Below are positions 30,050-58,279 of a stretch of DNA of 64,000 nt, piece by piece. Made by a program: the position numbers and the translations under genes. This DNA is from Clostridia bacterium (GTDB lineage: Bacteria; Bacillota; Clostridia; Christensenellales; Aristaeellaceae). The first letter of the stretch is position 1. The number at the start of each line of letters is the position of its first letter. The stretch spans positions 3,453-67,452 of the forward strand of contig JAFQKQ010000107.1 of NCBI GenBank assembly GCA_017396845.1. The letters are read 5' to 3'. Under the pieces are notes generated by a model. It saw nothing but the letters and a program-made list of their open reading frames with translations, had not been told where the DNA came from and ran no database searches.

Positions 30050-30249
30050 TTGATTTCCCTCCTTTTTTCCGCCTTTCGGCGTATGAGAGTATTGTTGACA
30101 AAAGGAAGAAAAAACATACCCCGAATACAAACATTTTTTTGCATTCTCCGCTGATCAGGGATACCAATTTCCGATAAGATATGGTATACTTATGCTATTG
30201 TACTATGCATGTGACAATTCGCTTGCATTTGAGGGAGGATTTGATTTTT

Positions 30250-33081
30250 ATGAAAAAGGCGCTCACGGTTGTGCTGTCAATTCTGCTCGCTCTCTCCATT
30301 GCCGGAAATGCATTTTTGTTTGTAAGATACTCAAATGAAAACAAAAACGCGGTGAAACTTTCGGAGGAGCTTCGCGCAGCGGAGGCAGAATTTTCCGATT
30401 CACACGTTGAGATCGAATCTTTGAATCAAACAATTCAGGAAAAGGATGAGCAGTACCAGCAGGCTCTGACTCAGCTTGCTCTTCTGGATGAACAGAACAT
30501 CGGTCTGAACGCCGATATTCAGAGTATCAGCCAGGAGCTTGACAGCGCGAAAAACGAGCTCAGTCAGTATACCGAAGAGAAAACGGACTTCGAAGCGGCC
30601 ATTCAGGCGCTCGAATCCTCCAATCAGGAAAATCTGACCGAAATCGGTCGTCTGAGCAGCGTGATCCAGGAATTGGAAGACAGCGCGGTTCAGACCGCCG
30701 AAGCGTTCGAGGCGCTTGCAAAGGAAAACGAAGAATCCGCAAGCAAAAACTCTCTTCTTGCAGATGAAAACGCCAAGCTTGCAAGCGAAAACGAAGCGCT
30801 CAAAAAGGACGCCGAAGCGCGCGACGAGCAGATTTCCCTCCTGACAAGCGAAATTGCGCAGCTTGAAGATGAGCGCGACGCCCTTGGTGTTTCCCTTTCC
30901 GCTTTGACGGGCGAAAACGAAGCATACGCCGAAAAGGCGACGCAGGATCAGTTGAATTATGCAAATCTTCAGAAAAAATACGACGAGCTCACGCTGAGCG
31001 CCTCCGAAATCAAAACCTCCCTTGACGCGCAGAAGAAAGCCTATGAGCAGCTCAAGATCAGCTACGATGAAAGCGTACAGCTGCTGAGCGAATCCAACGA
31101 AAAAGTACATACCCTTCAGGCGGACGTAGAAGCAGCCAGATCGACCTCGGAACAGCTGAAAGCCGACATCGCAGGTCTTCAGGCGGCGCTTCAGACGGAA
31201 ACGCAGAATTCCGAGCAGCTGCTCAGCGATGTAAACGAAATTCTCGCAGGGGCGTCCAATGTATCCGACTTCCTCAGCTCCATCTCCGGAAACGTAACGG
31301 AAGCTACCGACTCCCTCGCGATGACCGTAGAGGGTATCTCCAGCGTTACCAAGGAAATCACCGATGAAAACAGCAAAAATGCAAATGCAACCGTTCAGGA
31401 AGTGCAGCTGGATCTTGCAAAGACCTGTGCGCTGATTGAAGAACTCAAAGAAAGCGGCGCTATCGCCGCAGAGACGGCTGCAGATCTCAGCGTGCAGCTG
31501 AAGGCCGTTTCCGACCGTCTGAGCGCTTCTGAAGGCGGCGAAGGCAGCGAAGACCTCGCATCCGCCATCGACGGCATGGGCGGCGCGCTGGGCTCCTCCA
31601 AGGAAACCATCGATCAGCTTATCGCGCTCACCAAGTCCCTCTCCGAAAACAGCGGCGCGCTTTCCGATCAGCTGGAAAGCGAAGGCGGCAACGCAGATTC
31701 CCTCAAAGCACAGTTAGACCAGATTATCGCCTCTCTTTCCGAGACTGAAAAGGCGCTTGAAAGCGCTCTGAGCGCACAGGAAGCCACCAATCAGGAATTT
31801 GACCAGCTGAAGGCCGAGTTGAATGCGCGCACGGGCGAGCTGGACACCGCAAAGCAGGAAATCTACAGCCTGCAGGCAACGCTGACCGCCAAGAACGTAG
31901 AGCTTGAAAACGTAAATCAGGCGCTCGAAAGCGCACAGAACTCCTACAGCGAAGCCGATCAGGCGCTTACCGAAAGCAAGAATCTGGTTAGCGAAATGGA
32001 GGCAAAGCTTGCCAAGAGCCAGGAAGCGCTCGACAGCACTTCAGAAAAGCTCGCCGCTTCCGAAGACGCGCTTTTGAGAGCCGAAACCGCGCTGAAGGCG
32101 GCTGAAGCTCTGAACGCAGAGAAGGACGAAAAGATTCTTGCCCTCACCGAGGAAAACGAAAGCGAAAAGGCGAAGAACGCCGAAACCGAGAAGAAGCTTT
32201 TCGATACCGAAAACGCGCTGAGCGAAACCGAAGGCAAGCTCGCTTCCGCCGAGAACGCACTGAGCGAAACCAAAGACAAGCTCGCTTCTACTGAGAACAC
32301 GCTCAGCGTTACCGAAGACAAGCTCGCTTCTACTGAGAACACGCTCAGCGTTACCGAAGACAAGCTCGCTTCTACTGAGAACACGCTCAGCGTTACCGAA
32401 GACAAGCTCGCTTCTACCGAAGATGCGCTCAAGGCTGCCGAAGGCAAGCTGGCGGAAACCGAGGATACGCTTGCAAAGACCCAGACCGCTCTGGCCGGTA
32501 CGCAGGACGAGCTCAGTTCAGCGAAGACCACCCTTGAAAACACCGAAAACGAGCTCAGCGACACCGTAAGCGCACTGAATGCAACGGAGCAGGCGCTTAG
32601 CGAAAGCGAACAGGCGCTGAAGGAAACGCGCGAGACGCTCGCAGATACGGAGAATCTGCTCAAGGATACCCAGGACAGGCTTTCCGAAACGGAAGCGAAG
32701 CTTGCCTCCACCTCCGACGCGCTTTCCAAGTCCGAACGCGAATTGAGCGCGCTTCTCAACAAGAGACCGAGCGCCGCAGAAGAAAGCGCCATCATTTCCA
32801 CGCCCGTACAGGCGATTGCGTTTGACGAAACCGGCCTCACCGGCGCTTTCGAAATCGTAAACAAGGGCCCGGATGCCAGAACCTTCCTTCTGGAGCTGGT
32901 AGATGAAGACGGAAACGTTCTCTATTCCAAAAAGATCTACCGCAACAACACGCTTTCCGAAATCGTACTTACGGAAGCGCCCGACGCAGATGCAGATTAC
33001 TTCATCCGCTATACCTACTACGACAACCGCGGAAAGCTTGAAAGCAGCATCACCACGCCGGTTACGATTATCTTCTCCTGA
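30250..33081 (+). CDS. large membrane-anchored coiled-coil protein with a repetitive 14-aa module region and a C-terminal beta-rich domain
   Basis: The start is the ATG at 30250, after GGGAGGA. The N-terminal TM helix is ALTVVLSILLALSIAGNAFLFV. About 800 aa of E/K/L/A/S-rich heptad-like sequence follows, then about 120 aa that are not coiled coil. Confidence 0.8.
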   Translation: MKKALTVVLSILLALSIAGNAFLFVRYSNENKNAVKLSEELRAAEAEFSDSHVEIESLNQTIQEKDEQYQQALTQLALLDEQNIGLNADIQSISQELDSAKNELSQYTEEKTDFEAAIQALESSNQENLTEIGRLSSVIQELEDSAVQTAEAFEALAKENEESASKNSLLADENAKLASENEALKKDAEARDEQISLLTSEIAQLEDERDALGVSLSALTGENEAYAEKATQDQLNYANLQKKYDELTLSASEIKTSLDAQKKAYEQLKISYDESVQLLSESNEKVHTLQADVEAARSTSEQLKADIAGLQAALQTETQNSEQLLSDVNEILAGASNVSDFLSSISGNVTEATDSLAMTVEGISSVTKEITDENSKNANATVQEVQLDLAKTCALIEELKESGAIAAETAADLSVQLKAVSDRLSASEGGEGSEDLASAIDGMGGALGSSKETIDQLIALTKSLSENSGALSDQLESEGGNADSLKAQLDQIIASLSETEKALESALSAQEATNQEFDQLKAELNARTGELDTAKQEIYSLQATLTAKNVELENVNQALESAQNSYSEADQALTESKNLVSEMEAKLAKSQEALDSTSEKLAASEDALLRAETALKAAEALNAEKDEKILALTEENESEKAKNAETEKKLFDTENALSETEGKLASAENALSETKDKLASTENTLSVTEDKLASTENTLSVTEDKLASTENTLSVTEDKLASTEDALKAAEGKLAETEDTLAKTQTALAGTQDELSSAKTTLENTENELSDTVSALNATEQALSESEQALKETRETLADTENLLKDTQDRLSETEAKLASTSDALSKSERELSALLNKRPSAAEESAIISTPVQAIAFDETGLTGAFEIVNKGPDARTFLLELVDEDGNVLYSKKIYRNNTLSEIVLTEAPDADADYFIRYTYYDNRGKLESSITTPVTIIFS
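32275..32418 (+). repeat. perfect 42-bp tandem repeat (3 full copies plus a partial fourth) inside the coiled-coil gene
   Basis: The unit GACAAGCTCGCTTCTACTGAGAACACGCTCAGCGTTACCGAA occurs at 32275, 32317 and 32359. It encodes DKLASTENTLSVTE three times. Degenerate copies flank it. Confidence 0.95.
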
Positions 33082-42743: not shown

Positions 42744-42886
42744 GGAAGCAACAACAACGATACGGCAAAAATGCGCCGAAACGGACAAATGACAGGCTTT
42801 GATTCATAATATGCATACGCGCATTTTCATACGGACTCCGCACGCACCCGTTCACCGGCATTCTTGAACAAATGGAGGAATTCACG

Positions 42887-45730
42887 ATGAAAAAACTCTG
42901 CACGGCCTCGCTTCTCCTTCTAAGTCTTCTTTTCATCCTCTTTTCGGCGTCCGCGCTGAAATCCGGCACCTTCGAATACACAGTAAACAGCGACGGCACC
43001 GCAACCATCACCGACTTCATTTCCAATACCAACCACGTCTCCATACCCTCTTCGATTCAGGGGTACACGGTTACCGTAATCGGCAGCAAGGCTTTCTCCA
43101 GCCACTCCAAGCTGGAATCCATAGAGATTCCGAACACCGTTACCGAGATCGGCGAACACGCCTTTACCTACTGCTCGAGCCTTAAAAGCATCACCATTCC
43201 CGGCTCCGTAAAAACCATACAGGCCTTTGCCTTCAACGACTGCGACAGGCTGATCGACGTTACCATCGAAGAAGGCGTTGAGAGCATTCAGAACCGAGCT
43301 TTTGCAAGCTGTAAGAATCTCGTCGAAGTTTCTCTCCCCGGAAGCGTTACATACATCGATGCGTACGCGTTTCATTCTCACAATGCAAAGCTTTCCTTCG
43401 CAGTGCCGGATAATTCCTACGCTCTCAGATACTGCAAGGATCAGTCTTTAACCTATAAAATCGAAGAGCGGGAACCCGTCGCCGTCAGCGATCCCTCCGT
43501 CAAGAAAACGGATAGCGGCATTATTTATGAAGTAACCGAAAACGATACGGTTACCATCCTCGGATACACCGGCAGCGAATCTACGCTATTAATCCCCGAT
43601 AAAATCGACGGCTATAAAGTTACCGCCATCGGCGATTATGCATTCAGAAAGAATTCCACACTCTCAAGCGTTAATTTCCCGAATACCCTGACCTCCATCG
43701 GCGACGGCGCGTTTCTTCTGTGCAAAAAGCTCAATTGGATTACCCTTCCCAGCAGCTTAACCCATATCGGTATTTCCGCATTTTCCGACTGCGAAGCGCT
43801 TTCCTGGATCGAAATTCCCAGCGGTGTAACCGTCATCAGCAACTATGCGTTTCAGAATTGCAAATCTCTTATGATGGTCACGCTTCCCGATACCCTCAAG
43901 GTCATTAAAAAGTACGCATTCAGTATGTGCGATAACCTCTACACGATCGAAATCCCCGATCAGGTAACCACCATCGGTGAAGCCGCCTTCTGGCACTGCG
44001 ACGCTCTTTATAAAGCCACCGTCCCGGAAAGCGTAACCTTCATCGGCAGCAATGCTTTTACCGGCTGCGCTTCTTTCCTCCAAATTCTCGTTCATCCCGA
44101 TTCCAAGGCCGAGCAGTATTGCCGGGAAAACCGGATCAGCAGCTCCCATATCGGCCCTCCCATTCCGGAAGGACTCGAATATTTCTACAACGATAACGGC
44201 ACTATTACCATTACGGGTTACACCGGTTCCGCATCAGAGATTGCTATTCCCGACATAATCGACGGCTTAACCGTTGCAACCATACGCGACAGAGCCTTCT
44301 TCGGCTGTACATCCCTTACGCAGATTTCGATCCCGGACAGCATTACCTATATCGGCGGCTCTGCATTCCGCGAGTGCACCTCTCTTGAAAGCATCGTCCT
44401 TCCCGACAGCGTGATATATATGGGCTCATCTGTGTTCTCAAAATGTACCTCCCTCAAAAGCATCACCCTTCCCAAAGGTCTTTCCTCCATCAGCAGCAAT
44501 TTGTTTGTCAATTGCCGTTCGCTTACGGAGATCGTTATTCCCGGCGCCGTTACCTCCATCGGCGAAATGGCATTCTCCGGCTGCACTGCTCTGACCTCCG
44601 TTCTCATTCCGGACAGCGTCACTGCCATCGAGAAGCACGGCTTCTATTCCTGCTCCTCTCTTTCAGAGATTGCCATTCCGGACAGCGTCGCTTCCATCGG
44701 CGACTGCGCATTTGAAGGCTGCGCCTCACTTACGCAGCTCACCCTTCCCAAAGCATTATCATCCATCGGCAATAACGCGTTCTCAGGCTGTCACGCTGAC
44801 CTTTCCGTGTTTGTATACCACGGCTCCTATGCCGCCGATTACTGCCAAAATAGCGGCGTTTCCTATGTATATCTGGATGCGCCGGCTGTAACGCCTACGC
44901 CCGAGCCTACCTTTACGCCCACGCCCGAGCCTACCTTTACGCCCACGCCCGAGCCCACCTTTACGCCTACCCCCGAACCCACCTTTACGCCTACCCCCGA
45001 GCCCACTTTCACGCCTACGCCCGAGCCCACTTTCACGCCTACGCCCGAGCCCACTTTCACGCCTACGCCCGAGCCGACAGAGACTCCGGCTCCCGCCCCC
45101 GCGTACGCATATACCTCCGGCGACTGGACCTACTATCTCTCCGGCGACGGCACCGCGTCCATTGAAAGATATATCGGAAGCGACAGCGAAGTATATATTC
45201 CGGAATCCATCGACGGCTATACCGTCGCGAAGCTGAATCCGGATTCGTTCAAATTCTGCAAATCCGTATCCGAAATATATATCCCGAACACTCTGGTTTC
45301 GATTCCCTCGAATCCTTTCACGGGATGCTGGCTGCTTTCCGCCTTCCATGTATCGGGCGACCACCCGGTATTTGAAGTAGCAAACGACGCGCTGATCGAT
45401 AAAACCGAACGCCGCCTTGTATGCTATCCGTCGATTTTCTCCGCATCCTCCTATGTCATTCCGGAGGGCATAGAGATCATCGGCTCTTACGCATTTGAAT
45501 ACTGCACGGAGCTTAGTGAAATTGTTCTTCCCACATCCCTCAGGGAAATCCACGATTATGCATTCTCCTGCTGCAGCTTCAGAATCATGAATCTCCCCGA
45601 AAACATCACTTTCATTTCAGATACGGCTTTCGATGACTGCTATCCCACCCCTGCCTTCATGGTATACGGTGATTCATATGCGGATGAATACTGCCGTAAA
45701 AACCGCCTGACCCACGGCTACCTGCCGTAA
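42887..45730 (+). CDS. secreted BspA-type leucine-rich-repeat protein: two LRR blocks joined by a (TPTPEPTF)n linker
   Basis: The signal peptide is [23 protein letters not shown]. There are many repeats of about 23 aa of the form I.IP.SVT.IG..AF..C..L. The start is the ATG at 42887, after GGAGGA. Confidence 0.85.
44891..45076 (+). repeat. 24-bp tandem repeat, about 7.7 copies, encoding TPTPEPTF
   Basis: Units start at 44891 and recur every 24 bp up to 45059. Three synonymous sub-variants occur (..CCTACCTTT, ..CCCACCTTT, ..CCCACTTTC). Confidence 0.95.
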
Positions 45731-47770: not shown

Positions 47771-47854
47771 TTGTATGATAAAAGCGTTCTACGGAAGAAA
47801 AGTTCACAGCATAGGAAGTATTCTGAATCTGCTTAACGACAGGAGCGATTGATT

Positions 47855-48430
47855 GTGAAGAAAGTATTTTTAGTTGGCGATTCCATACGGCTGGGCTACG
47901 ATTCCTGCGTGCGCGATCTTTTGGAAAACGAAGCGCAGGTGTATTGGTCGAATGAAAATGCGCGCTTTGTCATGCATACGCTCAGGTATCTGCACGAATG
48001 GGCGCAGGTGGATTGCGATCCCGAAAAGATCGACGTCGTTCACTGGAACAACGGCCTTTGGGATGCGCTCCTCTTAACGGGCGACGGCACGTTTACCCCC
48101 ATAGAGCATTACGAACATGCGCTTCACAGAATCGCAAAGCGCATGAAGACGGTGTTCCCCAACGCAAAGATCATCTTCGGCCTCACAACAAGCGTCGTAA
48201 CCACCCGCGTAGAAAACTATGCGCTCGTTCGCAGGAATGAAGATATCGAGGCCTTTAACGAGGCCGCCCGCAGAGTTATGAAGGAGGAAGGCGTCTTCGT
48301 AAACGATCTGTATGCCGTTTCCTCTGCAATGCCCGACGATATGCATACCCCGGAAGGCGTGCATTTTACCCCGGAAGGCTATAAACTGCTTGCAGAGCAT
48401 GTGGTAAAGGCCGTAAGGGAAGTCATGTAA
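47855..48430 (+). CDS. SGNH/GDSL family hydrolase
   Basis: Block I is FLVGDSIRLGY (GDS), with a later WNNGLWD and a C-terminal D..H-type region. The GTG at 47855 is 9 nt after AGGAG, whereas the TTG at 47849 is too close to it. Confidence 0.8.
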   Translation: MKKVFLVGDSIRLGYDSCVRDLLENEAQVYWSNENARFVMHTLRYLHEWAQVDCDPEKIDVVHWNNGLWDALLLTGDGTFTPIEHYEHALHRIAKRMKTVFPNAKIIFGLTTSVVTTRVENYALVRRNEDIEAFNEAARRVMKEEGVFVNDLYAVSSAMPDDMHTPEGVHFTPEGYKLLAEHVVKAVREVM

Positions 48431-48535: not shown

Positions 48536-50740
48536 TCATCCGCCCGCGTCTATTTCCCGGTGCGTGGTCGGCGAAACGCCCCACTTTCGGCGGAAAGCCT
48601 TGTAGAACGTGGTGGTGTTGGCATATCCCACCATTTCGGCTACATCCTTTACCGGAAGCGTAGAGGAAGACAACAGCGTTTCCGCTTCCGTAAGGCGGAT
48701 ATTTTCAAGATACGCGGAATAAGTAACGCCCATGTGCGCCTTGAAAAAGCGCGACATCATACTTTCCGACATATCAAACAGATCTGCTAGCGCGGTAAGC
48801 GACAGCGCGGGGTTGGCGTAATTCTCCTGCAGATAAATCTTAATCGACTGCGCCAGATCGTTTTCCGAATCCTCTTTCCTTCCGCCAATGGAGGAAACCG
48901 CGTAATGAACGGCGTTTCTCAATAGCGAAAGCACATGGGTAAAGGGCAGTGCATCGGGGTACTCGGAGAGGGTCGCGCGGATGGCGGAAAGATCGTATTG
49001 ACCGCTCAGCCGCATCAGTATTCCGCGGATATCATAGAAGAATTGACGGCATACCTCTCTTTCCCGGTACAGGGTAAGTTCCTCTCCGAACTCCTTTTTT
49101 GCAATCGCATCATAATAGGCGCACGCATCCTCCTCGGATCCTGCCATTATGAGCCGGTTCAGATGGTCGATATCCTCCATTGAAATGCCGTACACTTCAT
49201 AACCGTTTCTCTTTTCCGTGAACCGAACGCCGCTCAAATTCCATGCGCGGAGTTCCCGAAGCTCGTTATATGCGTCATTAAACGCAGTGTGGATATAATC
49301 AAGACCCTTCGCAGATTCGGAAACGCCCACTGCAAATTTACGATCCTTTATACACTCTTCAAGCGCCGTAAGCACCTGCTCAAGCTCCTCCGAAAGCGCC
49401 TGCATACTTTCTTCGCTGTCTTCGCATATATGAAGCACTGCAAATACGCCCGGATCCACCGAATATACCATTGCGTCGCCGAAATACTGCTTTAACAGTG
49501 TTTCGCATTTGGAAATATGTCCTTCGTCCATCGCCTCCGGCCCGGTGTCCGATACGACCGCCACGCGAATTCTGCTTTCCGCATGAAACTGAGAAACGGA
49601 TTTCAGCGCTGTGCGTTCAGCGGGCGTTAAGTACTCGCTTCTCAAAAGCTTATCCATTAAAGCCGTCCGAAGCGCGGGCTTAAGCATAACAAGATTTTCG
49701 GATATGCGTTGGTATTCGTTTTCAAACTGATAAAAGGACGTATGTCCGTAATACTGGAGGCGGCGGGTGAGCTTCTGCATCGGGAAGGCCAGATACACGG
49801 AGAAGAGAGCCACAAGCACAAGCAGCATAATTAAAATCACGTACAATAAGAGCTTCAAAAACTTTGTAAAGCCTGAAATCTGCGAAACAATACTGTCATC
49901 GCTTACGGAAAGATAGATCGTCGTTCCGAGAAAGTCTATTCTTTTAGAGATAAATGTGGTTTTCAGTTCGTCATTGTAAAACAGATTCTCTTCGCCTTCC
50001 GGGAGAGGGAGGTATTCATACAGCACACGGTTTCGCGATACAAGCCCCGCAGGCTCGCCTACCTGGTTCCCGTTGATCGCCATTTCAAACATCTTTTCAA
50101 CATTCAGCTGAAGTACAACATAAACATCGTCGGGAACATTGCTGAGCGGCTGGATATAAAAGCAGGATAAATATACCTCTCCGTCGTTATATGCGTAAAA
50201 GGCGTGCGTTAACCGCCTTACGTATTGCGTGGAAACATTCCCGCGAAGAATGGCAAGGAATTCCTCCGCCGATTCTCCCTGGGCGCCGATAGAAAGTGAT
50301 TGAACCGCTCGCGGCAGATTATGGTAGATCCCGCCGTCTGCTGCGCAGATAAAGGGACTTTCTCCGTCAAACAGCAGAAACATGCGCGAGATTACGCCAT
50401 TTAGCATTTCTCTATCCGGTTTGACGCTTTGAAGCAGTTTCTTTAGATCTATAAGCTTTGCAAAATCCGCATTGCCCAGCGTTTCTACTTCCTTTAACGC
50501 AACCAATGTCTCATTGTATTTCAGATTTGTCGTCTGGTTTATCAGATTTGAAACCGCGTCGTTTACTTCCCGCGCGCCCTGTTCCAGAAGCGAGGATACA
50601 TGGCTGATGGCGTTATCCTTCATTGTTCTCTGCGCGCCGTTGTACACAAATACATAAATCAAAAGAAAGATTACCAGCACAAAAAAAGCAGTGGCCGTTA
50701 CATGCGTTATGGGGCGCAGACGCGATGATCTGTTCGTCAT
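48536..50740 (-). CDS. membrane-embedded AraC-family one-component regulator: two TM helices flank an extracytoplasmic domain of about 260 aa, with a C-terminal AraC HTH
   Basis: The TM helices are ATAFFVLVIFLLIYVFVY and LLLYVILIMLLVLVALFSVYLAF. The C-terminus ...VKDVAEMVGYANTTTFYKAFRRKWGVSP is an AraC HTH. Confidence 0.85.
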   Translation of the reverse strand: MTNRSSRLRPITHVTATAFFVLVIFLLIYVFVYNGAQRTMKDNAISHVSSLLEQGAREVNDAVSNLINQTTNLKYNETLVALKEVETLGNADFAKLIDLKKLLQSVKPDREMLNGVISRMFLLFDGESPFICAADGGIYHNLPRAVQSLSIGAQGESAEEFLAILRGNVSTQYVRRLTHAFYAYNDGEVYLSCFYIQPLSNVPDDVYVVLQLNVEKMFEMAINGNQVGEPAGLVSRNRVLYEYLPLPEGEENLFYNDELKTTFISKRIDFLGTTIYLSVSDDSIVSQISGFTKFLKLLLYVILIMLLVLVALFSVYLAFPMQKLTRRLQYYGHTSFYQFENEYQRISENLVMLKPALRTALMDKLLRSEYLTPAERTALKSVSQFHAESRIRVAVVSDTGPEAMDEGHISKCETLLKQYFGDAMVYSVDPGVFAVLHICEDSEESMQALSEELEQVLTALEECIKDRKFAVGVSESAKGLDYIHTAFNDAYNELRELRAWNLSGVRFTEKRNGYEVYGISMEDIDHLNRLIMAGSEEDACAYYDAIAKKEFGEELTLYREREVCRQFFYDIRGILMRLSGQYDLSAIRATLSEYPDALPFTHVLSLLRNAVHYAVSSIGGRKEDSENDLAQSIKIYLQENYANPALSLTALADLFDMSESMMSRFFKAHMGVTYSAYLENIRLTEAETLLSSSTLPVKDVAEMVGYANTTTFYKAFRRKWGVSPTTHREIDAGG

Positions 50741-51016: not shown

Positions 51017-51964
51017 GTGACCACCCCATCCTCCCGCAAGATAGTTCCCAAGCACAGCAGTCTCCTTACGCGTATCCGGCGCACCCGTGCGCTGTATATG
51101 CTCCTTATCCCCGCTATCGTGTTTTTAATTGTTTTCCATTACTACCCCATGTACGGCGCGATTATCGCTTTTAAAAACTATACCATTTCCGGCGGCATAC
51201 TGGGCAGCGAATGGGTGGGCTTAAAAAACTTTCAGAAGTTCATCAATTATTATGAATTCCCGCTGATCCTGAAAAATACGCTCCGAATTTCCATATACAC
51301 AATCACCGCTTCCTTCTTTATAAAGCTCATCCTTTCGCTTTCGCTCAACTGCATGCGCTTAGAGGGCTATAAGAAAATAGTGCAGACCGTTACCTACATG
51401 CCGCACTTTATATCCACCGTTGTTATCGTAGGTATTCTCATTCGCTTTTTCAATCCCTCTATCGGTCCGATTTCAAAGCTTATTCAATCCCTGGGCGGCA
51501 CAAACCGCGATTTGATGGGCGTATCGGAAGCGGTTCCTCACATATATGTATGGTCAGGCATATGGCAGAATGCCGGCTGGTCAACCATACTGTATCTTGC
51601 AACGCTTTCCAGTGTCGACCCAACGCTTCATGAAGCCGCGATTGTCGACGGCGCAACGCGCATGCACCGCGTATGGCATATCGATCTTCCCACCCTCATT
51701 CCTACTATTGTAATTACCCTTATTATGGATATGGGCAGAGTAATGAGCGTGGGCGCCGATAAAATGCTGCTTATGCAGAACAGCCTGAATCTCTCCACTA
51801 CCCAGATCATTTCCACCTATGTATACGGCGTTGGCATCGCTTCCGCATCTCCGCAGTATTCCTACGGCGCGGCAATCAGCCTTTTCAACACCGTAATCAA
51901 CTTCTCGCTTCTTATGATTGTGAACACCATCAGCAAGAAGCTCAATCAGGCCGCATTGTGGTGA
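51017..51964 (+). CDS. carbohydrate ABC transporter permease (LplB-like)
   Basis: A polytopic protein with the EAA loop HEAAIVDGATRMHRVWHIDLP. The GTG start lies 8 nt after AGGAGG. Confidence 0.9.
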   Translation: MTTPSSRKIVPKHSSLLTRIRRTRALYMLLIPAIVFLIVFHYYPMYGAIIAFKNYTISGGILGSEWVGLKNFQKFINYYEFPLILKNTLRISIYTITASFFIKLILSLSLNCMRLEGYKKIVQTVTYMPHFISTVVIVGILIRFFNPSIGPISKLIQSLGGTNRDLMGVSEAVPHIYVWSGIWQNAGWSTILYLATLSSVDPTLHEAAIVDGATRMHRVWHIDLPTLIPTIVITLIMDMGRVMSVGADKMLLMQNSLNLSTTQIISTYVYGVGIASASPQYSYGAAISLFNTVINFSLLMIVNTISKKLNQAALW

Positions 51965-51981
51965 GAAGGGAGAAAAACGAA

Positions 51982-52872
51982 ATGCGCAGCAAAAGCCACA
52001 TCAAAGATACAAAAGGCGAACGGATTTTCTACCTTCTGAACGGTTTATTCCTTACAATCTTTCTGATCTTCACGCTTTATCCGCTTATGTGCGTAATCAG
52101 CGGAGCGATTTCCGATCCCATTCCCGTCGCAAGGGGCGAAGTAACGTTTTATCCGAAGGGCTTCAGCCTTCGCGGCTTTGAAATCAACCTTCAAAACCCG
52201 AAGGTGTTAAGGGGCTTTGGAAACTCTCTTTTCTACACAGTGGTCGGAACGGTATTAAACCTCTTTATCACAGTCATCACCGGCTATGTCATGTCCCGAA
52301 AAGAGCTTCCCGGCCGAACCGCCATTTCCTTTTTCATGGCGTTCACCATGTGGTTTTCGGGCGGTTTGATTCCTACATTCCTGCTCGTTCGCGATCTGGG
52401 TCTTTTTAATACCCGATGGGCGCTGCTTATCCCGGGCATGCTGAACGTATGGAACATGATCGTGTGCCGAACGTTTATCAACTCCACAATTCCCGAAGAA
52501 ATGTTTGAGGCGGCGTCGATCGACGGCTGCGGCTACATGCGTTTCCTGTTTTCCATGGTTCTTCCGCTTTCCAGCGCCATCATCGCCGTGCTCACGCTGT
52601 GGTACGCCATCGGCCATTGGAATTCGTATTTCAACGCGCTCATCTATGTATATGAGCCTGAGCTTCAGCCGCTTCAGCTGTATCTTCGAGCAACTTTGAT
52701 TGAAAATATAGGCGACTTGTCCGATGTAGAGGCTTCTACGGAGTCTTTGGGCATTCAGGAGCTGATCAAGAATTCCCTGATTCTGATAGCATGTCTCCCC
52801 CTTTGGATTCTCTACCCGTTTGTCCAGAAATTCTTTGTAAAGGGCGTAATGATCGGCTCGGTCAAAGGATAA
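51982..52872 (+). CDS. carbohydrate ABC transporter permease (LplC-like)
   Basis: The EAA loop is FEAASIDGCGYMRFLFSMVLP. The ATG at 51982 follows AAGGGAG. Confidence 0.9.
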   Translation: MRSKSHIKDTKGERIFYLLNGLFLTIFLIFTLYPLMCVISGAISDPIPVARGEVTFYPKGFSLRGFEINLQNPKVLRGFGNSLFYTVVGTVLNLFITVITGYVMSRKELPGRTAISFFMAFTMWFSGGLIPTFLLVRDLGLFNTRWALLIPGMLNVWNMIVCRTFINSTIPEEMFEAASIDGCGYMRFLFSMVLPLSSAIIAVLTLWYAIGHWNSYFNALIYVYEPELQPLQLYLRATLIENIGDLSDVEASTESLGIQELIKNSLILIACLPLWILYPFVQKFFVKGVMIGSVKG

Positions 52873-52917: not shown

Positions 52918-54507
52918 ATGTTCAAGAAGCTCGTATCTCTGCTGCTCGCTATTTCGATGATGGTAATAGCGTTCGGCGCGTTCGCAGAAGTGACCCCAAA
53001 GGGCACGCTCCCGATCGTAAATGAACCCATCACCCTCACCGTTGCAATCCCGGTAGCCGCCAAGTGCGAAGACATTCACACCAATGCGTTCACCCTCTGG
53101 ATTGAAGAAAAAACCGGCATCGATCTTGAAATTATTGAGCTCGCTCCCACCGATACCGCAACGCAGGTAAACACCATCATGCTTTCGGGCAATCTTCCCG
53201 ACATGTTTATGTGCTACTACTTCGGCTATGATGAGCTGGCTTCCTACGTAGACGCAGGCTACATTACCGATCTTACGGAATATGTTGAGGAATACGGCGA
53301 CGAGTATTATAAATTCCTCGAAGAGACTTCCATCTATGGAAACGGCGAAGCACACGTAACGATTAACGGAAGAATTTACGGCGTTCCCACCATGGCTGAC
53401 ATCGTTACATCGATCTACGCCACGAACCACCTGATGATGAACGGCCTGTTCCTTGATGCGCTTGACGCGGAAATGCCGACTACGCTTGACGAGCTGTACG
53501 ATCTGCTTGTTCGAATCCGCGATGAGGATGTCAACGGCAACGGCGATCCCGACGACGAAATTCCGCTGAGCGGTTCCACCAACCGCGATTTCCTGATTGA
53601 GCAGATCGGCGGCGCATTCCAGTACACCGACAAAGAAACCTACCTTAAGGTAAACGACGGCGAAGTTGAATTCATCGGCGCAAACGACGAATTCCATCAG
53701 ACGGTTGAGTTCCTTAAGCAGCTTCTCGATGAAGGCCTCCTCGATCCCGCTTTCTTTACGCAGGACGACGCGGCGCTCCTCACTCTGAACACACAGGAAT
53801 ATCCGCTGATCGGCGTAAACGGAAGCTACATTTCCAATCAGTACGATGCATCTACCGACCTTATGGCCAGCCTGAACATCGCTCCGAACCTTGAGGGCCC
53901 CGACGGATACGTATCCTCCAACGTAATCACTCCTACCTTTGATCGCTCCATCGTCATTACCACTGCCTGCGAAAATGTAGACGCAGCTTTCCGCCTTGCA
54001 GATTTCTTGCTTTCCGAAGAAGCCGCCATGTACGGCCGTGTTGGCAGAGAAGGCATTGAGTGGGCATACGCCGATCCCGCGAAGGGACTCAACGGCAGAA
54101 ACGGCCAGCCCGCGAAGTACGAGCTTCTTAAGCCCCAGGAGTGGATCCTTCCCTCCACCAACGTTATCTGGCGCTGCAACGGCTTCAGCCATGTAGACGT
54201 ATTCAACTACATCGGCGAGGATCCCAACGGCATGACCGGAAGACTGGCAAAGGCTGTTTCCGATTATGACCTCGTAGCGCAGACCAGCAACGAAGCGCTC
54301 CCGCAGCTTCTGATGGATCCCGAGACCAGCGCTGAATACAAAGAGCTTCAGAAGCTCATTTGCAACTATGTAAATGAGAACTATGCCAAGTTCGTACTCG
54401 GCGACCGCTCCATGGACGAGTGGGACGCCTACGTTCAGACGCTTGAAGAGATCGGCATTGAAAGATACGTGCAGATCGCTCAGGAAGCCTACGACGCAAT
54501 GAACTAA
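52918..54507 (+). CDS. large (529 aa) extracellular solute-binding protein (LplA-like, family 1)
   Basis: It has a signal sequence, the size and composition typical of oligosaccharide-binding SBPs, and an AAGGAGG RBS. Confidence 0.85.
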   Translation: MFKKLVSLLLAISMMVIAFGAFAEVTPKGTLPIVNEPITLTVAIPVAAKCEDIHTNAFTLWIEEKTGIDLEIIELAPTDTATQVNTIMLSGNLPDMFMCYYFGYDELASYVDAGYITDLTEYVEEYGDEYYKFLEETSIYGNGEAHVTINGRIYGVPTMADIVTSIYATNHLMMNGLFLDALDAEMPTTLDELYDLLVRIRDEDVNGNGDPDDEIPLSGSTNRDFLIEQIGGAFQYTDKETYLKVNDGEVEFIGANDEFHQTVEFLKQLLDEGLLDPAFFTQDDAALLTLNTQEYPLIGVNGSYISNQYDASTDLMASLNIAPNLEGPDGYVSSNVITPTFDRSIVITTACENVDAAFRLADFLLSEEAAMYGRVGREGIEWAYADPAKGLNGRNGQPAKYELLKPQEWILPSTNVIWRCNGFSHVDVFNYIGEDPNGMTGRLAKAVSDYDLVAQTSNEALPQLLMDPETSAEYKELQKLICNYVNENYAKFVLGDRSMDEWDAYVQTLEEIGIERYVQIAQEAYDAMN

Positions 54508-54611
54508 AAATGCATCCGCCCGTTCCCGATTGTATACCCTGCATGAAGTGAACGGCAAAAACAAGCGAAGCTTCGTTTTTCAACTTCCCGCTCCGCCTTA
54601 GGATGGGATCG

Positions 54612-54631
54612 TCAAACGAAGCTTCGTTTGA
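54612..54631. repeat. perfect 20-bp palindrome TCAAACGAAG|CTTCGTTTGA
   Basis: Read directly from the sequence. A related copy (AAGCGAAGCTTCGTTTTT) lies at about 54563-54580. Confidence 0.9.
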
Positions 54632-54813
54632 AGCCTATGTATGGATGATTTTCCCGGGAGCGACCACCGGGGGCGGTTGATCTGACATGGCGCGTCCCCT
54701 CGCGGGGGCGCGAACCTGACGTTTGCGCCGTCATGCGGTTGCCGGCAATAAATAACAGAATCCAATGAAACCGTTATCACATACCGGCCGCTCATGCTTA
54801 AGCTCCATTCCAT

Positions 54814-55058
54814 AGGTCGGCTGAAGGCCGAATAGCGACAGCGATTTGTAAAATCGCCGAGCGTACCCGGCGGCGCTTGCGCTGACGGGCGGTGTAGAGG
54901 TCGGCTGAAGGCCGACTGGCGACAGCGATTTAAAAAATCGCCGAGCGTACCCGGCGGCGCTTGCGCTGACGGGCGGTGTAGAGGTCGGCTGAAGGCCGAC
55001 TGGCGACAGCGATTAAAAAATCGCCGAGCGTACCCGGCGGCGCTTGCGCTGACGGGCG
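54814..55058. repeat. 84-bp tandem repeat, about 2.9 nearly identical copies, each with two hairpins
   Basis: Units start at 54814, 54898 and 54982. Each contains GTCGGC-TGAAG-GCCGAC and GCGATT(T)-loop-(A)AATCGC. It is non-coding and lies between the SBP gene and the glycyl-radical enzyme gene. Confidence 0.95.
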
Positions 55059-55211
55059 AAATAAAAAATGGGCGCCAGGAGGCTTGTAAATCAACAATTT
55101 CTTATTTTATGCAACTTTTCGTTTTTACAACAGCCTCCGGCGGCAAAGCCGCCCGAAAGGGCCGTCCCCTTCGCTTTCACCAAAATAATCTGAATTAAAG
55201 GAGCTTCACAC

Positions 55212-57407
55212 ATGCTTTGGAATCGTTTTCATAAAGACAGAGAATTTTTGGATCTATACGAAAATCCGAATTTCCCGCCGGAGACAGGCGTAATAGATAA
55301 GGATGAGGCATCCAAAGCCGTCGCAAAAATTCAGGGAAGATCACCCGATATTATCAAGGCGAAGGCATGTGCGTTTGTTCTCGAACACTGCGCCATAGAC
55401 GTTAACCCCAAATGCTGGTTCGGCGTAAACGTTGCAGGGCGTGTACCCAGCCTTAAATACGGAGCCAATAATACCATTAATCAGCTGATTGGTAAATTTT
55501 TTAGCGATCAGACAAAGGGAAATCCCATTGAAAAGACGCTTACCGCCATGAGCGAAAGCTACGCAGGCGCAGGCGCGCACTTTCCCGACCACGTGCACTA
55601 TGTGCCCGACTGGGACGCCGTATTGCATCTGGGCTATCCGGGGCTTCTTAAGCGCGCACGCGATTACCGAAATAAACACGATACGCTCACAAATGAGCAG
55701 ATTGATTTCTATGATTCCGTAGAAATCATGCTTACCGCCTGTATACGCTTTATATCCCGCCTTGCCGATCTTGCAGAGGAGAGAATTCAGGAGGATCCGC
55801 GCATGCCGCTTCGCGTAAAATGCCTTCGCTCTCTCGAAAGCGGCGCGCCCAAAGATATTTATGAAGCGATGCAGCTTATGCACATTCATCAGTTTCTCGG
55901 CCAGTTCGTAGAGTGCGCGCAGGTACGCTCGCTCGGCGACATCGACAGGCTCCTGTATCCCTATTTCTTAAAAGACCTCTATCGCGGCGCATACACCCGC
56001 GAACAGGTGAAGGAGCTTTTCCAGTATTTCTTTATTATCTATGATTTCCAGAAGCACTCATATAACCAGCCGGTATCCATCGGCGGTACTGACATATTCG
56101 GAAAAACCGCATTCAACGAGCTTACAGATGTAATTCTGGACGCATATGACGACGCAATGCTCTGTAATCTCAAAATTCATGTATTTGTCGGCGAAAACAC
56201 GCCCGACGCAGTTCTCCGCAAAATGATGGCGATGATACGCAGGGGATACGGCTCATTCGTATTCATGAATACGGATATCGGCATAAAAGCTATGGAAAAA
56301 GCATATGGCATACCCGTTCAGCCGCATATGCTCGGCTCTCAGGGCTGCTATAACTTTAATATCAAGGCATATCCCCAGCACTCGAATCAAACTCGCATCA
56401 ACCTTGTAAAAGCGATTGAGCTTGCATTCTTTGAGGGCGTTGACCCGCTTTCCGGTCATGAAATCGGCGCAAAGACGATGCCGGTTGAAAACATGAAGAG
56501 CTTTGCCGATTTCAAAGAGGCGTTTGAAGCGCAGATAGATTCTCTTACCAATCAGCATATAGAAATCTGTGATTTCTACGACGGCATCATGGGCAAGGTC
56601 AATCCCACGCCGCTTATGTCCTCGACTTTCGATTTCAGCATGGAAGCGGGCAAAAGCTGCTTTGAATTCGGTTCCACATCCGTACTCATGATGGGAATCG
56701 GCACCACGGCGGACTGCCTGATGATGGTGAAAAAGCATGTGTTTGACCAAAAGGACGTATCCATTACAACGCTGCGCGACGCGCTCAAGGCCGACTGGCA
56801 GGGCTATGAAGAGCTTCAAAGGATGCTGTACAGCGATCCTGAAAAGTACGGAAACAATCTGGACGAGCCCGACAGATTTGCCGTAGAACTTTCCGAAAAC
56901 ATGATCCGGCGCGTGACCGGCAGAAAGAATAAAAGAGGCGGCCAGTTCATCTGCCACTTTGAAACCATCGACCGCTGCTTCCGTTCCGGAAGAGTGACAG
57001 GCGCAACCCCCGACGGAAAATTTGCCAGAAAGCCTTTTTCCAAGAACTTGAACGCCGCTTTCGGGCAGGACAGAAACGGCTTGACCGCAATGATTCTGTC
57101 CGCCTCCAAGTTCGATACGACCCTCATGCCCATCGGTGCGCCCGTCGACTTTATGCTGCACCCCTCCGCAACCAAGGGCGAAGAAGGACTTGACGCGATG
57201 ATTCAGATTCTGAGAACGTTTAATTCGCTCGGCGGCTACGCGCTTCAGGGCAACGTGCTCGACGCGAACGTACTGCGCGAAGCACAGAAGCATCCGGAGT
57301 TGTATAAAAATCTGCAGGTGCGCGTCAGCGGATGGAACTGGAACTTTGTGGACATGACCAAGGAATATCAGGATACATTCATCATGCAGGCGGAAGCATG
57401 CGTATGA
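55212..57407 (+). CDS. glycyl radical enzyme (PFL2/glycerol-dehydratase-like superfamily), substrate unknown
   Basis: The C-terminal fingerprint is LQVRVSGWNWNF (RVxG[FWY]). The candidate thiyl Cys is C379 in GSQGCYNF. RBS AAAGGAG. Confidence 0.9.
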   Translation: MLWNRFHKDREFLDLYENPNFPPETGVIDKDEASKAVAKIQGRSPDIIKAKACAFVLEHCAIDVNPKCWFGVNVAGRVPSLKYGANNTINQLIGKFFSDQTKGNPIEKTLTAMSESYAGAGAHFPDHVHYVPDWDAVLHLGYPGLLKRARDYRNKHDTLTNEQIDFYDSVEIMLTACIRFISRLADLAEERIQEDPRMPLRVKCLRSLESGAPKDIYEAMQLMHIHQFLGQFVECAQVRSLGDIDRLLYPYFLKDLYRGAYTREQVKELFQYFFIIYDFQKHSYNQPVSIGGTDIFGKTAFNELTDVILDAYDDAMLCNLKIHVFVGENTPDAVLRKMMAMIRRGYGSFVFMNTDIGIKAMEKAYGIPVQPHMLGSQGCYNFNIKAYPQHSNQTRINLVKAIELAFFEGVDPLSGHEIGAKTMPVENMKSFADFKEAFEAQIDSLTNQHIEICDFYDGIMGKVNPTPLMSSTFDFSMEAGKSCFEFGSTSVLMMGIGTTADCLMMVKKHVFDQKDVSITTLRDALKADWQGYEELQRMLYSDPEKYGNNLDEPDRFAVELSENMIRRVTGRKNKRGGQFICHFETIDRCFRSGRVTGATPDGKFARKPFSKNLNAAFGQDRNGLTAMILSASKFDTTLMPIGAPVDFMLHPSATKGEEGLDAMIQILRTFNSLGGYALQGNVLDANVLREAQKHPELYKNLQVRVSGWNWNFVDMTKEYQDTFIMQAEACV

Positions 57408-58279
57408 ACGGCATATTGATGGACATCAAGCGCATGGCCGTTCACGATGGACCGGGATTGCGCACGACGCTCTTTTTAAAGGGCTGTCCGCTCAGCTGTA
57501 TCTGGTGCCATAACCCCGAAGGTCAAGACATGAAGCCTCAAATCGCGTGGTTTTCTCATAAATGCGTATCCTGCGATCTGTGCACACGCGCGTGCCCCTT
57601 TCAAGGCGCGCGCGATATGAAAGACCGCGATAAGTGCATCGTCTGCGGCAAGTGCGTATCCGCCTGTCCAACGGGCGCACGTAAGCTCTATGGGCGTGAA
57701 ATCACGCCGGAAGAAGCGCTTGCCATCGCGCTTGAAGACCGCGTCTTCTATGGAACCGTCGGCGGCATAACGCTGTCCGGAGGCGAACCGCTCATGCAGC
57801 CGGATTTTGCACTCAAAGTACTTGAGGACGCAAAAAAAGCAGGAATAACCACGTGTCTTGACACCTGCGGTTACGCCCCCTGGGGCGTATTTGAAAAAAC
57901 TCTTGACATATGCGATACATATCTTTACGACATTAAGCACATGGACGACGCTATGCACACGGCGCTCACCGGAAAAGGAAACGCGTTCATCTTGAGTAAT
58001 CTTAAAAAGCTTTCCGAACGCGGCGCAAGAATCCAGATTCGAATACCGCTCATTCCGAACATAAACGATTCGCCTGAGCACATCGCTCATGTTGCCAAAT
58101 TTCTGAAATCCGTGCATCCCGAATGCGTAAAGGTTCTTCCCTATCACCAGATGGCGCGCATGAAATATTTGGCGCTGGGTCTTGCCGATCCCCTCCCCGA
58201 GAGTGCGGATGATCTTACCAAACGCGCAGAACGCGCTAAAGATCAGCTGATCACGGCCGGGCTTAAGGCGTATATCTGA
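57404..58279 (+). CDS. glycyl-radical enzyme activating enzyme (radical SAM, with two auxiliary 4Fe-4S motifs)
   Basis: The radical SAM motif is CPLSCIWCHNPE (CxxxCxxC). The ferredoxin-like motifs are CVSCDLCTRACP and CIVCGKCVSACP. The ATG overlaps the upstream stop as ATGA. Confidence 0.9.
   Translation: MNGILMDIKRMAVHDGPGLRTTLFLKGCPLSCIWCHNPEGQDMKPQIAWFSHKCVSCDLCTRACPFQGARDMKDRDKCIVCGKCVSACPTGARKLYGREITPEEALAIALEDRVFYGTVGGITLSGGEPLMQPDFALKVLEDAKKAGITTCLDTCGYAPWGVFEKTLDICDTYLYDIKHMDDAMHTALTGKGNAFILSNLKKLSERGARIQIRIPLIPNINDSPEHIAHVAKFLKSVHPECVKVLPYHQMARMKYLALGLADPLPESADDLTKRAERAKDQLITAGLKAYI

Follow-up and report, generated by a model that had tools for sequence, protein, structure and literature searches.

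We analysed a 64,000-nucleotide stretch of the metagenome-assembled genome of a gut or rumen Clostridia bacterium, referred to below as the window and used for all coordinates, which carries a gene for an oxygen-sensitive glycyl radical enzyme (GRE) with an unusual Cys loop. The gene occupies 55212–57407 on the forward strand and encodes 731 residues, and its ATG is preceded by an AGGAG 9 nt upstream. The product, deposited at NCBI as MBQ3080501.1 and labelled 'hypothetical protein', matches the PFL-like (PF02901, E = 7.6e-92) and Gly_radical (PF01228, E = 2.1e-19) domains of Pfam. Its C-terminus, LQVRVSGWNWNFVDM, contains the Gly loop R704-V-S-G707-W708, which fits the pattern RVxG[FWY]. The glycyl radical site G707, encoded by GGA at 57330–57332, is invariant across the alignment of the short-GRE family defined below. 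C379 lies 328 residues upstream of G707, in the context HMLGSQGCYNFNI, and belongs to the Cys loop G378-C379-Y380-N381, of which the last three residues are encoded by TGC-TAT-AAC at 56346–56354 (TGC 56346–56348, AAC 56352–56354). An Asn is therefore found where the CXE motif of other GREs has its Glu. Because AAC is two substitutions away from any Glu codon, N381 is not a sequencing slip.

The Cys loop was assigned from sequence alignments and from the secondary structure of a model. In phmmer alignments, the stretch GSQGC379-Y-N381 falls, gap-free in the loop, on the Cys loop of each of five solved GREs: HypD (where it reads GCVE), glycerol dehydratase (GD), 1,2-propanediol dehydratase (PD), HpzG and the PFL2 of A. 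fulgidus. C379 is the sole invariant cysteine in a 43-sequence family alignment. The AlphaFold2 model built on this alignment (predicted local distance difference test score, pLDDT, 91; predicted template modelling score, pTM, 0.91) places C379 between strands 374–376 and 382–384, and G707 between strands 702–705 and 709–711, so that each would sit at the tip of a hairpin. A Foldseek search with the model returned template modelling (TM) scores of 0.82–0.87 to more than 50 GRE chains, with GD, PD and HypD at about 0.86 and 24% identity. In GD, the radical glycine at residue 763 lies about 330 residues from Cys433, close to the spacing of 328 seen here. Cys433 is the catalytic cysteine of GD according to a June 2026 review from the Drennan laboratory. 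Alignment and model agree in identifying C379 as the predicted thiyl cysteine of a Cys loop that would face the Gly loop. An earlier, sequence-only reading of this DNA had named the RVxG[FWY] motif with its Gly at about residue 707, the cysteine about 328 residues upstream as that of the Cys loop, and the Asn at the Glu position. These three claims are borne out by the Gly_radical match and the intact RVSGW motif, by the alignment to five solved GREs and the modelled hairpin tip, and by the homologues described below.

The same reading had held that characterised eliminases follow a CXE rule and that PFL has a Cys-Cys pair, and the 2026 review states both. According to that review, CXE is kept, with its Glu bonded to the substrate, in all six C–O eliminases, CutC, the three C–S lyases and the three isomerases, and Cys-Cys occurs solely in PFL and TdcE. 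Exchange of this Glu for Gln abolishes the activity of CutC, IslA and HypD (HypD and IslA papers; 2026 review), and in solved GREs the CXE Glu also hydrogen-bonds the Cys-loop backbone. In phenylacetate decarboxylase (PAD), Gln484 at Cys+2 is essential (2026 review).

The window enzyme falls outside each of the assigned classes. It departs from the 1,2-eliminases and isomerases in having C379-Y-N381 instead of CXE, and from the formate lyases (PFL, TdcE) in having a lone Cys preceded by Gly and in scoring only 78 bits on the PFL equivalog TIGR01255 (cut-off 994). No open reading frame for a small Fe-S subunit, as expected for the decarboxylase HPAD, lies between or after the GRE and its activase. 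Genes for the beta and gamma subunits of X-succinate synthases are absent from the window, where the context is a sugar importer, and the match to BSS alpha is weak (E = 1e-32). With its invariant G707, the enzyme also differs from the aminoacyl radical enzymes, whose radical position is occupied by Ala, Ser or Thr instead of Gly. The HMM searches that the sequence-only reading had proposed detected both GRE domains, and no NCBIfam equivalog or subfamily cut-off was reached: bit scores against cut-offs were 270/1100 for HypD, 211/1050 for CutC, 309/678 for PFL2-3, 257/1000 for HpfG, 223/1000 for HpsG, 167/1100 for IAD and 164/1150 for HPAD. The enzyme is labelled 'hypothetical protein' because it scores under every curated family cut-off, although its activase carries a name in NCBI. 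Annotation-based surveys of GREs are likely to miss members of its clade. The best solved relative shares 24% identity, far from the identity above about 50% to a GRE of known function that would have placed the enzyme in an assigned type. Full-text literature searches found no report of a natural CXN Cys loop or of this clade.

The enzyme belongs to a family of short GREs, defined here by a length of about 680–760 residues, a G-C-[YFNW]-x Cys loop, an R-[VIL]-x-G-W Gly loop, invariant H129, R239, N397 and H650, and deletions after residues 80 and 281; the window GRE has all of these features. Compared with canonical eliminases, the chain lacks about 20 residues behind position 80 and a further 13 behind position 281, where HypD has the β2–β3 connector with Ser334, Asp339 and Phe340. 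A word-indexed search recovered 16 homologues at 57–74% identity, all with GCYN, followed by a tier at 40–48% identity with GCF[N/S/A] or GCNN and a very populous tier at 34–37% with GCYE. An exhaustive HMMER pass over 1.84 billion representatives at 50% identity gave 4833 hits. Among the best 150 of these, 119 carry GCYE, nearly all with RxCGW and a length of 680–760 residues, and only seven short representatives have no acidic residue at Cys+2. The signature of the family is GCYE together with RVCGW, and its usual partner is an AraC regulator. At least 598 relatives occur in GTDB species genomes, which come from gut and rumen Clostridia, Lentisphaerae, Victivallales, Planctomycetota and Armatimonadota. 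As an observation apart, some members of the family from the representative search (P0191, P0210, P0223, P0224, P0227, P0234 and P0238) bear long N-terminal extensions, to a total of 941–1563 residues, with the GRE module at the C-terminus.

The GCYE proteins, at 33–38% identity, are the parent family of the window enzyme; examples are the 744-residue proteins abundant in human-gut Clostridia, and others come from Lentisphaerae, Victivallales, Planctomycetota and Armatimonadota. They share with it the length, the N-terminus, D126, H129, Q237, R239, N397 and H650, as well as the pairing with an AraC regulator and an activase and the esterase or carbohydrate-related neighbours. On the other hand, they keep the CXE Glu, position 584 is occupied by His, and either Tyr or His stands at 395. 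The sequence-only reading had taken the short chain as a further mark of the Asn-bearing type. The chain is indeed 55–110 residues shorter than those of GD and PD, but the GCYE proteins are equally short. Since most of the short family has CXE, length and Glu loss are separate features, and shortness is a trait of the family.

In a neighbour-joining tree with 100 bootstraps, rooted with canonical-length GCVE GREs, the short-GRE family was monophyletic against the canonical-length GREs (100/100). All Glu-less members, with the loop variants GCYN, GCF[N/S/A], GCNN and GCFQ, formed one clade (86), the Glu-less clade joined its sister lineage with a support of 93, and GCYN grouped with GCF[N/S/A] (100). 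In the sister lineage (L024, P0043 and P0126), CXE is still present and Glu already stands at position 584. The simplest history would be that E584 was gained first and that the Cys-loop Glu was then lost once. GCYN is kept in all 20 close homologues (57–74% identity), and about 60 further positions are invariant down to 57% identity. The conservation of GCYN, E584 and R395 in 20 of 20 sequences argues for selection. The window gene encodes a complete GRE that is coupled to its activase and belongs to a new and conserved Glu-less subfamily, itself part of a huge family with carbohydrate-type gene contexts.

To compare the active sites, positions were mapped through gap-free stretches anchored on N397, G593 and G242, with the roles of residues taken from the HypD and IslA papers and the 2026 review; for GD, the mapping of roles covers His164 and Glu435. 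H129 is equivalent to His164 of GD, the acid for the leaving hydroxyl, and is invariant in the whole short-GRE family, including the Glu-less clade. Asn381 aligns with Glu436 of HypD, and the nearly invariant Q237 replaces Asp278, its catalytic acid/base. The invariant R239 aligns with Phe280 of HypD and Ile283 of GD. R395 (codon CGC, 56394–56396) stands at Tyr450 of HypD, a ligand of the substrate carboxylate; Arg occurs here only in the GCYN and GCF[N/S/A] subclades, with Tyr or His elsewhere. I586 replaces Thr645 of HypD, which also takes part in binding the substrate carboxylate. In the alignment, E584 (codon GAA, 56961–56963) falls on the β8 strand of HypD, within the active-site barrel, and precedes the Thr645 counterpart by two positions. 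It is a candidate for a relocated carboxylate. Glu is found at this position in 20 of 20 GCYN and 17 of 17 GCNN sequences, while 92 of 102 GCYE sequences have His. Among the 50%-identity representatives, an acidic residue at 584 occurs in 6 of 7 Glu-less clusters versus 14 of 123 CX[E/D] clusters (Fisher p = 4e-5, uncorrected for phylogeny). In the GCF[N/S/A] subclade, position 584 is Ser, Ala or Asn, and D390 is present instead. The window subclade has thus lost one loop anion and acquired one cation where the substrate is contacted, while the conserved His is still in place. Judged from the aligned residues, its pocket is probably polar and cationic, rich in Asn, Gln, His and Arg.

The GRE gene is followed at 57404–58279 (forward strand) by the gene for a 291-residue radical S-adenosylmethionine GRE activating enzyme, which scores 316 bits on TIGR02494 (cut-off 174) and contains the cluster motif CPLSCIWC (CX3CX2C) and ferredoxin-like domains. 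Its start overlaps the GRE stop as ATGA, and the activase is translationally coupled to the GRE. The start at 57404 agrees with the orthologues and with the deposited 291-residue protein, MBQ3080502.1; both rule out the start at 57332 given by a mechanical list of open reading frames (315 residues, 76-nt overlap with the GRE gene).

Upstream of the GRE, on the same strand, lie two permease genes of an ATP-binding cassette (ABC) importer (51017–51964 and 51958–52872, both BPD_transp_1) and the gene for a 529-residue family-1 solute-binding lipoprotein (52918–54507). The binding protein is that of a CUT1-type ABC importer and is conserved next to the GRE in orthologous loci; its solved relatives, FusA, Smon0123 and AlgQ1/2, bind the oligosaccharides fructo-oligosaccharides, unsaturated glycosaminoglycan disaccharides and alginate oligomers, respectively. 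Divergent from the ABC and GRE genes, on the reverse strand at 48536–50740, is the gene for a 734-residue AraC-family regulator with an N-terminal hydrophobic segment, which is probably membrane-spanning, a GGDEF_2-like middle and a C-terminal HTH_18 domain. A cytoplasmic SGNH/GDSL hydrolase of 193 residues, encoded at 47849–48430 on the forward strand, may be an accessory esterase. It shares 38% identity (E = 5e-44) with the product of an SGNH gene that lies between the two GRE genes of sister GCNN/GCNE operons; no SGNH gene stands next to the GRE in the closest orthologous loci.

Between the binding-protein and GRE genes is a gap of 704 nt (54508–55211), which contains a tandem repeat at 54814–55058 (an 84-nt unit, 2.9 copies, 96% identity) with several GC-rich hairpins per unit. 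Orthologous loci have about 80–110 nt here and no repeat, and no further copy of the unit was found in the window. Because an Rfam scan of the whole window gave no match at gathering thresholds, no riboswitch explains the long gap. The repeat could affect the coupling of GRE expression to the transporter genes. Elsewhere in the window, two genes contain coding repeats: 42872–45730 encodes a 952-residue BspA-type leucine-rich-repeat surface protein with a 24-nt (TPTPEPTF) repeat at 44891–45075, and 30181–33081 encodes a 966-residue coiled-coil-like protein with 42/84-nt repeats at 32205–32450.

The core cassette, made up of the AraC regulator, both permeases, the binding protein, the GRE and the activase, is found again in orthologous loci with GREs of 71%, 64% and 47% identity, and the same AraC regulator precedes the cassette in loci L081, L085, L086 and L090. 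Orthologous loci add two or three Gfo/Idh/MocA oxidoreductases, AP_endonuc_2 proteins (IolE-like, xylose-isomerase-like TIM barrels), a NagA-like deacetylase (203 bits, cut-off 226), a NagB-like protein, a NAGPA-domain protein, a PHP hydrolase, a phosphomutase (PGM) and an aldo-keto reductase. Several of the reading-frame calls in locus L002 have no Pfam match and are perhaps spurious.

In the sister subclades, the typical operon consists of an AraC regulator, a GRE with a GCNE loop, an SGNH hydrolase, an EamA transporter, a GRE with a GCNN loop and one activase. Such two-GRE operons occur in L007, L009, L011, L015, L017 (6116–13135) and L019. The pairing of GCNE and GCNN enzymes around one activase suggests two different radical steps in one pathway. 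Some sister loci contain up to three or four GRE paralogues along with SASA esterases, alcohol dehydrogenases, short-chain dehydrogenases/reductases (SDRs), lactonase-family proteins and glycoside hydrolases. In the surroundings of 50 GCYE loci, the genes that recur are AraC (34) and activase (33), followed by carbohydrate esterases, namely SASA (4), GDSL (3) and AXE1 (2). Over the short-GRE family as a whole, no type of non-regulatory neighbour is commoner than the esterases (SGNH, SASA, AXE1). Taken together, these gene contexts point to anaerobic processing of carbohydrates or amino sugars. Separately, two gut-metagenome loci, L087 (1–18235) and L090 (5786–15391), hold three or four short-GRE paralogues of 681–746 residues within 10–18 kb, mostly each with its own AraC regulator and alongside phosphotriesterase-family, M20 peptidase, beta-lactamase-family and SDR genes. 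This expansion is reminiscent of polysaccharide-utilisation loci.

Given this conservation and context, the function that we tentatively prefer, while stopping short of calling it probable, is a thiyl-initiated H-atom abstraction followed by heterolytic cleavage of a beta C–O or C–N bond in an imported sugar derivative, with base catalysis relocated or dispensable. In this scheme, the membrane AraC sensor would turn on the CUT1 importer together with the GRE and its activase. An imported carbohydrate derivative, possibly de-esterified beforehand by the neighbouring SGNH hydrolase, would bind in the polar, cationic pocket formed by R395, R239, Q237, several Asn and His residues and the shortened β2–β3 connector. 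The G707 radical would generate the C379 thiyl radical, which would abstract an H atom from the substrate. The beta C–O (or C–N) bond would then be cleaved heterolytically with H129, the equivalent of His164 in GD, as the acid, while proton abstraction would be performed by E584 or made unnecessary by the substrate. The role of N381 would be limited to hydrogen bonds with the substrate and the loop backbone. The carbonyl product would pass to the Gfo/Idh/MocA, aldo-keto reductase, alcohol dehydrogenase or xylose-isomerase-like enzymes.

Several observations weigh against this scheme. The reaction type is extrapolated from relatives that are at most 24% identical, and the dead E-to-Q variants of CutC, IslA and HypD mean that eliminase chemistry without the Glu is not trivially expected. 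That E584, R395 and H129 would lie close to C379 is suggested by the alignment to HypD and GD. By analogy with IslA, where the strand in question carries an Arg that is placed 'higher' in the pocket, E584 may bind the substrate rather than serve as a base. The GCF[N/S/A] enzymes lack both the Cys-loop Glu and E584, so that a relocated base is no universal rule of the clade. Outside the core cassette the gene contexts are variable, and none of the window genes downstream of the activase is related to the cassette. Finally, K603 (57018–57020) places a Lys in the otherwise conserved T-G-A-T-P-D-G-R motif, where 19 of 20 close homologues and all of the more distant tiers tabulated have Arg.

The absence of the Glu may instead reflect another reaction class, in which no base is needed at Cys+2 and N381 is a hydrogen-bond partner only. 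The target of the thiyl radical would then be a carbon with an acylamino, amino or carboxylate substituent, or the radical would oxidise a carboxylate, leading to decarboxylation (as in PAD and HPAD), radical epimerisation or isomerisation, or cleavage of an ether or glycoside beside an acetamido carbon. We regard this as possible, if somewhat unlikely. In its favour, the characterised eliminases and isomerases all have CXE and do not survive E-to-Q exchange, and in the sister subclade Cys+2 drifts to Ser or Ala, as expected of a non-catalytic residue. The gain of R395 and the loss of the loop anion would fit a carboxylate-bearing substrate, and the NagA-like, PIG-L (N-deacetylase-type) and NagB-like neighbours hint at amino sugars. 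Among characterised PFL-like GREs, a neutral amide at Cys+2 was found only in PAD (PhdB; catalytic cysteine Cys482), compared by description, and the Gln of PAD at this position is essential for a decarboxylation. However, PAD is an aromatic acid decarboxylase of about 800 residues from a different branch, with Gln rather than Asn, and the window enzyme scores poorly on the decarboxylase models IAD and HPAD. Moreover, H129 is invariant even in the Glu-less clade, which favours retained elimination chemistry, and the gain of E584 before the loss of the Glu resembles a replacement. The sequence-only reading had concluded that the chemistry lies outside the assigned types. The match to no characterised GRE agrees with this; as to the chemistry itself, the proposal is plausible but unproven, as E584 could preserve chemistry of the eliminase type.

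That the enzyme is a decayed or non-catalytic paralogue, deprived of its catalytic Glu, is very improbable. A residue essential in the relatives is gone, the NCBI label is 'hypothetical' and K603 disturbs a conserved motif. Nevertheless, the reading frame is full-length, G707, C379 and the radical domain are intact, and a dedicated activase is translationally coupled to the gene. GCYN and some 60 further positions remain invariant down to 57% identity, the cassette is kept in several genomes, and the Glu-less clade is old and diversified.

The enzyme could also be a canonical 1,2-eliminase or dehydratase of known specificity (HypD-, GD-, PD-, CutC-, IslA- or YbiW/PflD-like) that merely has an odd loop, as HypD, GD and PD are its leading matches in sequence and fold. 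HypD (PDB 6VXC/6VXE) is the best sequence match (E = 1e-68, TM 0.87) and shares with the window enzyme the ten-stranded barrel and the register of the Gly and Cys loops. Its His equivalent to H129 is kept, as mapped through His164 of GD, this region lying outside the HypD alignment. A two-ferredoxin-domain activase adjoins in both cases; with 311 bits, that of the window falls short of the cut-off of the HypD-activase model (425). Yet the identity to HypD is only 24%, four of its active-site residues are replaced (Glu436 by Asn381, Asp278 by Gln237, Tyr450 by Arg395 and Thr645 by Ile586), the segment with Ser334, Asp339 and Phe340 is deleted, and the context is a sugar importer rather than proline metabolism.

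Similarly, GD and PD (PDB 1R8W, 5I2G) are leading structural matches (TM 0.86), His164 of GD aligns with H129, and carbonyl-handling reductases lie near orthologues of the window GRE. Unlike them, the window enzyme has no CXE Glu and no microcompartment and is shorter; Asp447 of GD, an active-site residue there, aligns with Asn392. YbiW and PflD (PDB 8ID7, 8ID0) are the only characterised sugar-acting GREs and open the ring of 1,5-anhydrohexitol-6-phosphate by thiyl H-abstraction at a sugar carbon and C–O cleavage, which makes them the nearest functional analogy for a carbohydrate-linked GRE. In contrast to the window enzyme, to which they are 22–23% identical, they keep CXE (Glu443 and Glu433, respectively), with the Glu as the base, and act on sugar phosphates, while the window cassette has an ABC importer and no kinase gene. 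With identities of at most 24%, equivalog cut-offs missed two- to five-fold, CXE absent and no microcompartment or known-pathway genes near the GRE in the window, a known specificity is effectively refuted. The chance that the Cys loop was mis-assigned, and that the thiyl site is a different Cys with a Glu after it or a Cys before it, is negligible, as we found no support for it, while C379 is the sole invariant Cys, matches the catalytic Cys of five solved GREs gap-free, lies at a hairpin tip in the pLDDT-91 model and has nearly the spacing of GD.

Beyond these explanations, the Glu-less clade as a whole might constitute a new functional class of GREs that performs radical carbohydrate chemistry without the Cys-loop Glu, an idea that we consider conceivable but rather doubtful. 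Such an enzyme would, for example, take an H atom from the carbon that carries the acetamido or amino group in an imported amino sugar or glycoside, after which an ether, glycosidic or C–N bond of the substrate would be broken by base-independent beta-scission. If so, the clade would provide anaerobes with a radical 'etherase' or lyase where hydrolases fail, and the frequent GCNE/GCNN tandem would reflect a single sugar pathway with two successive radical steps of different chemistry.

The rule for GRE eliminases and isomerases is that the CXE Glu hydrogen-bonds or deprotonates the substrate, and the Glu-less clade is a natural experiment on how far this rule reaches. The cassette is compact, comprising sensor, importer, enzyme and activase, and therefore makes the discovery of the substrate directly testable. 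The clade also provides an entry into a very large family, which accounts for about 120 clusters at 50% identity within the nearest 150 representatives and whose gene contexts point to the processing of carbohydrates or amino sugars, an area in which only two GRE reactions, those of YbiW and PflD, are known.

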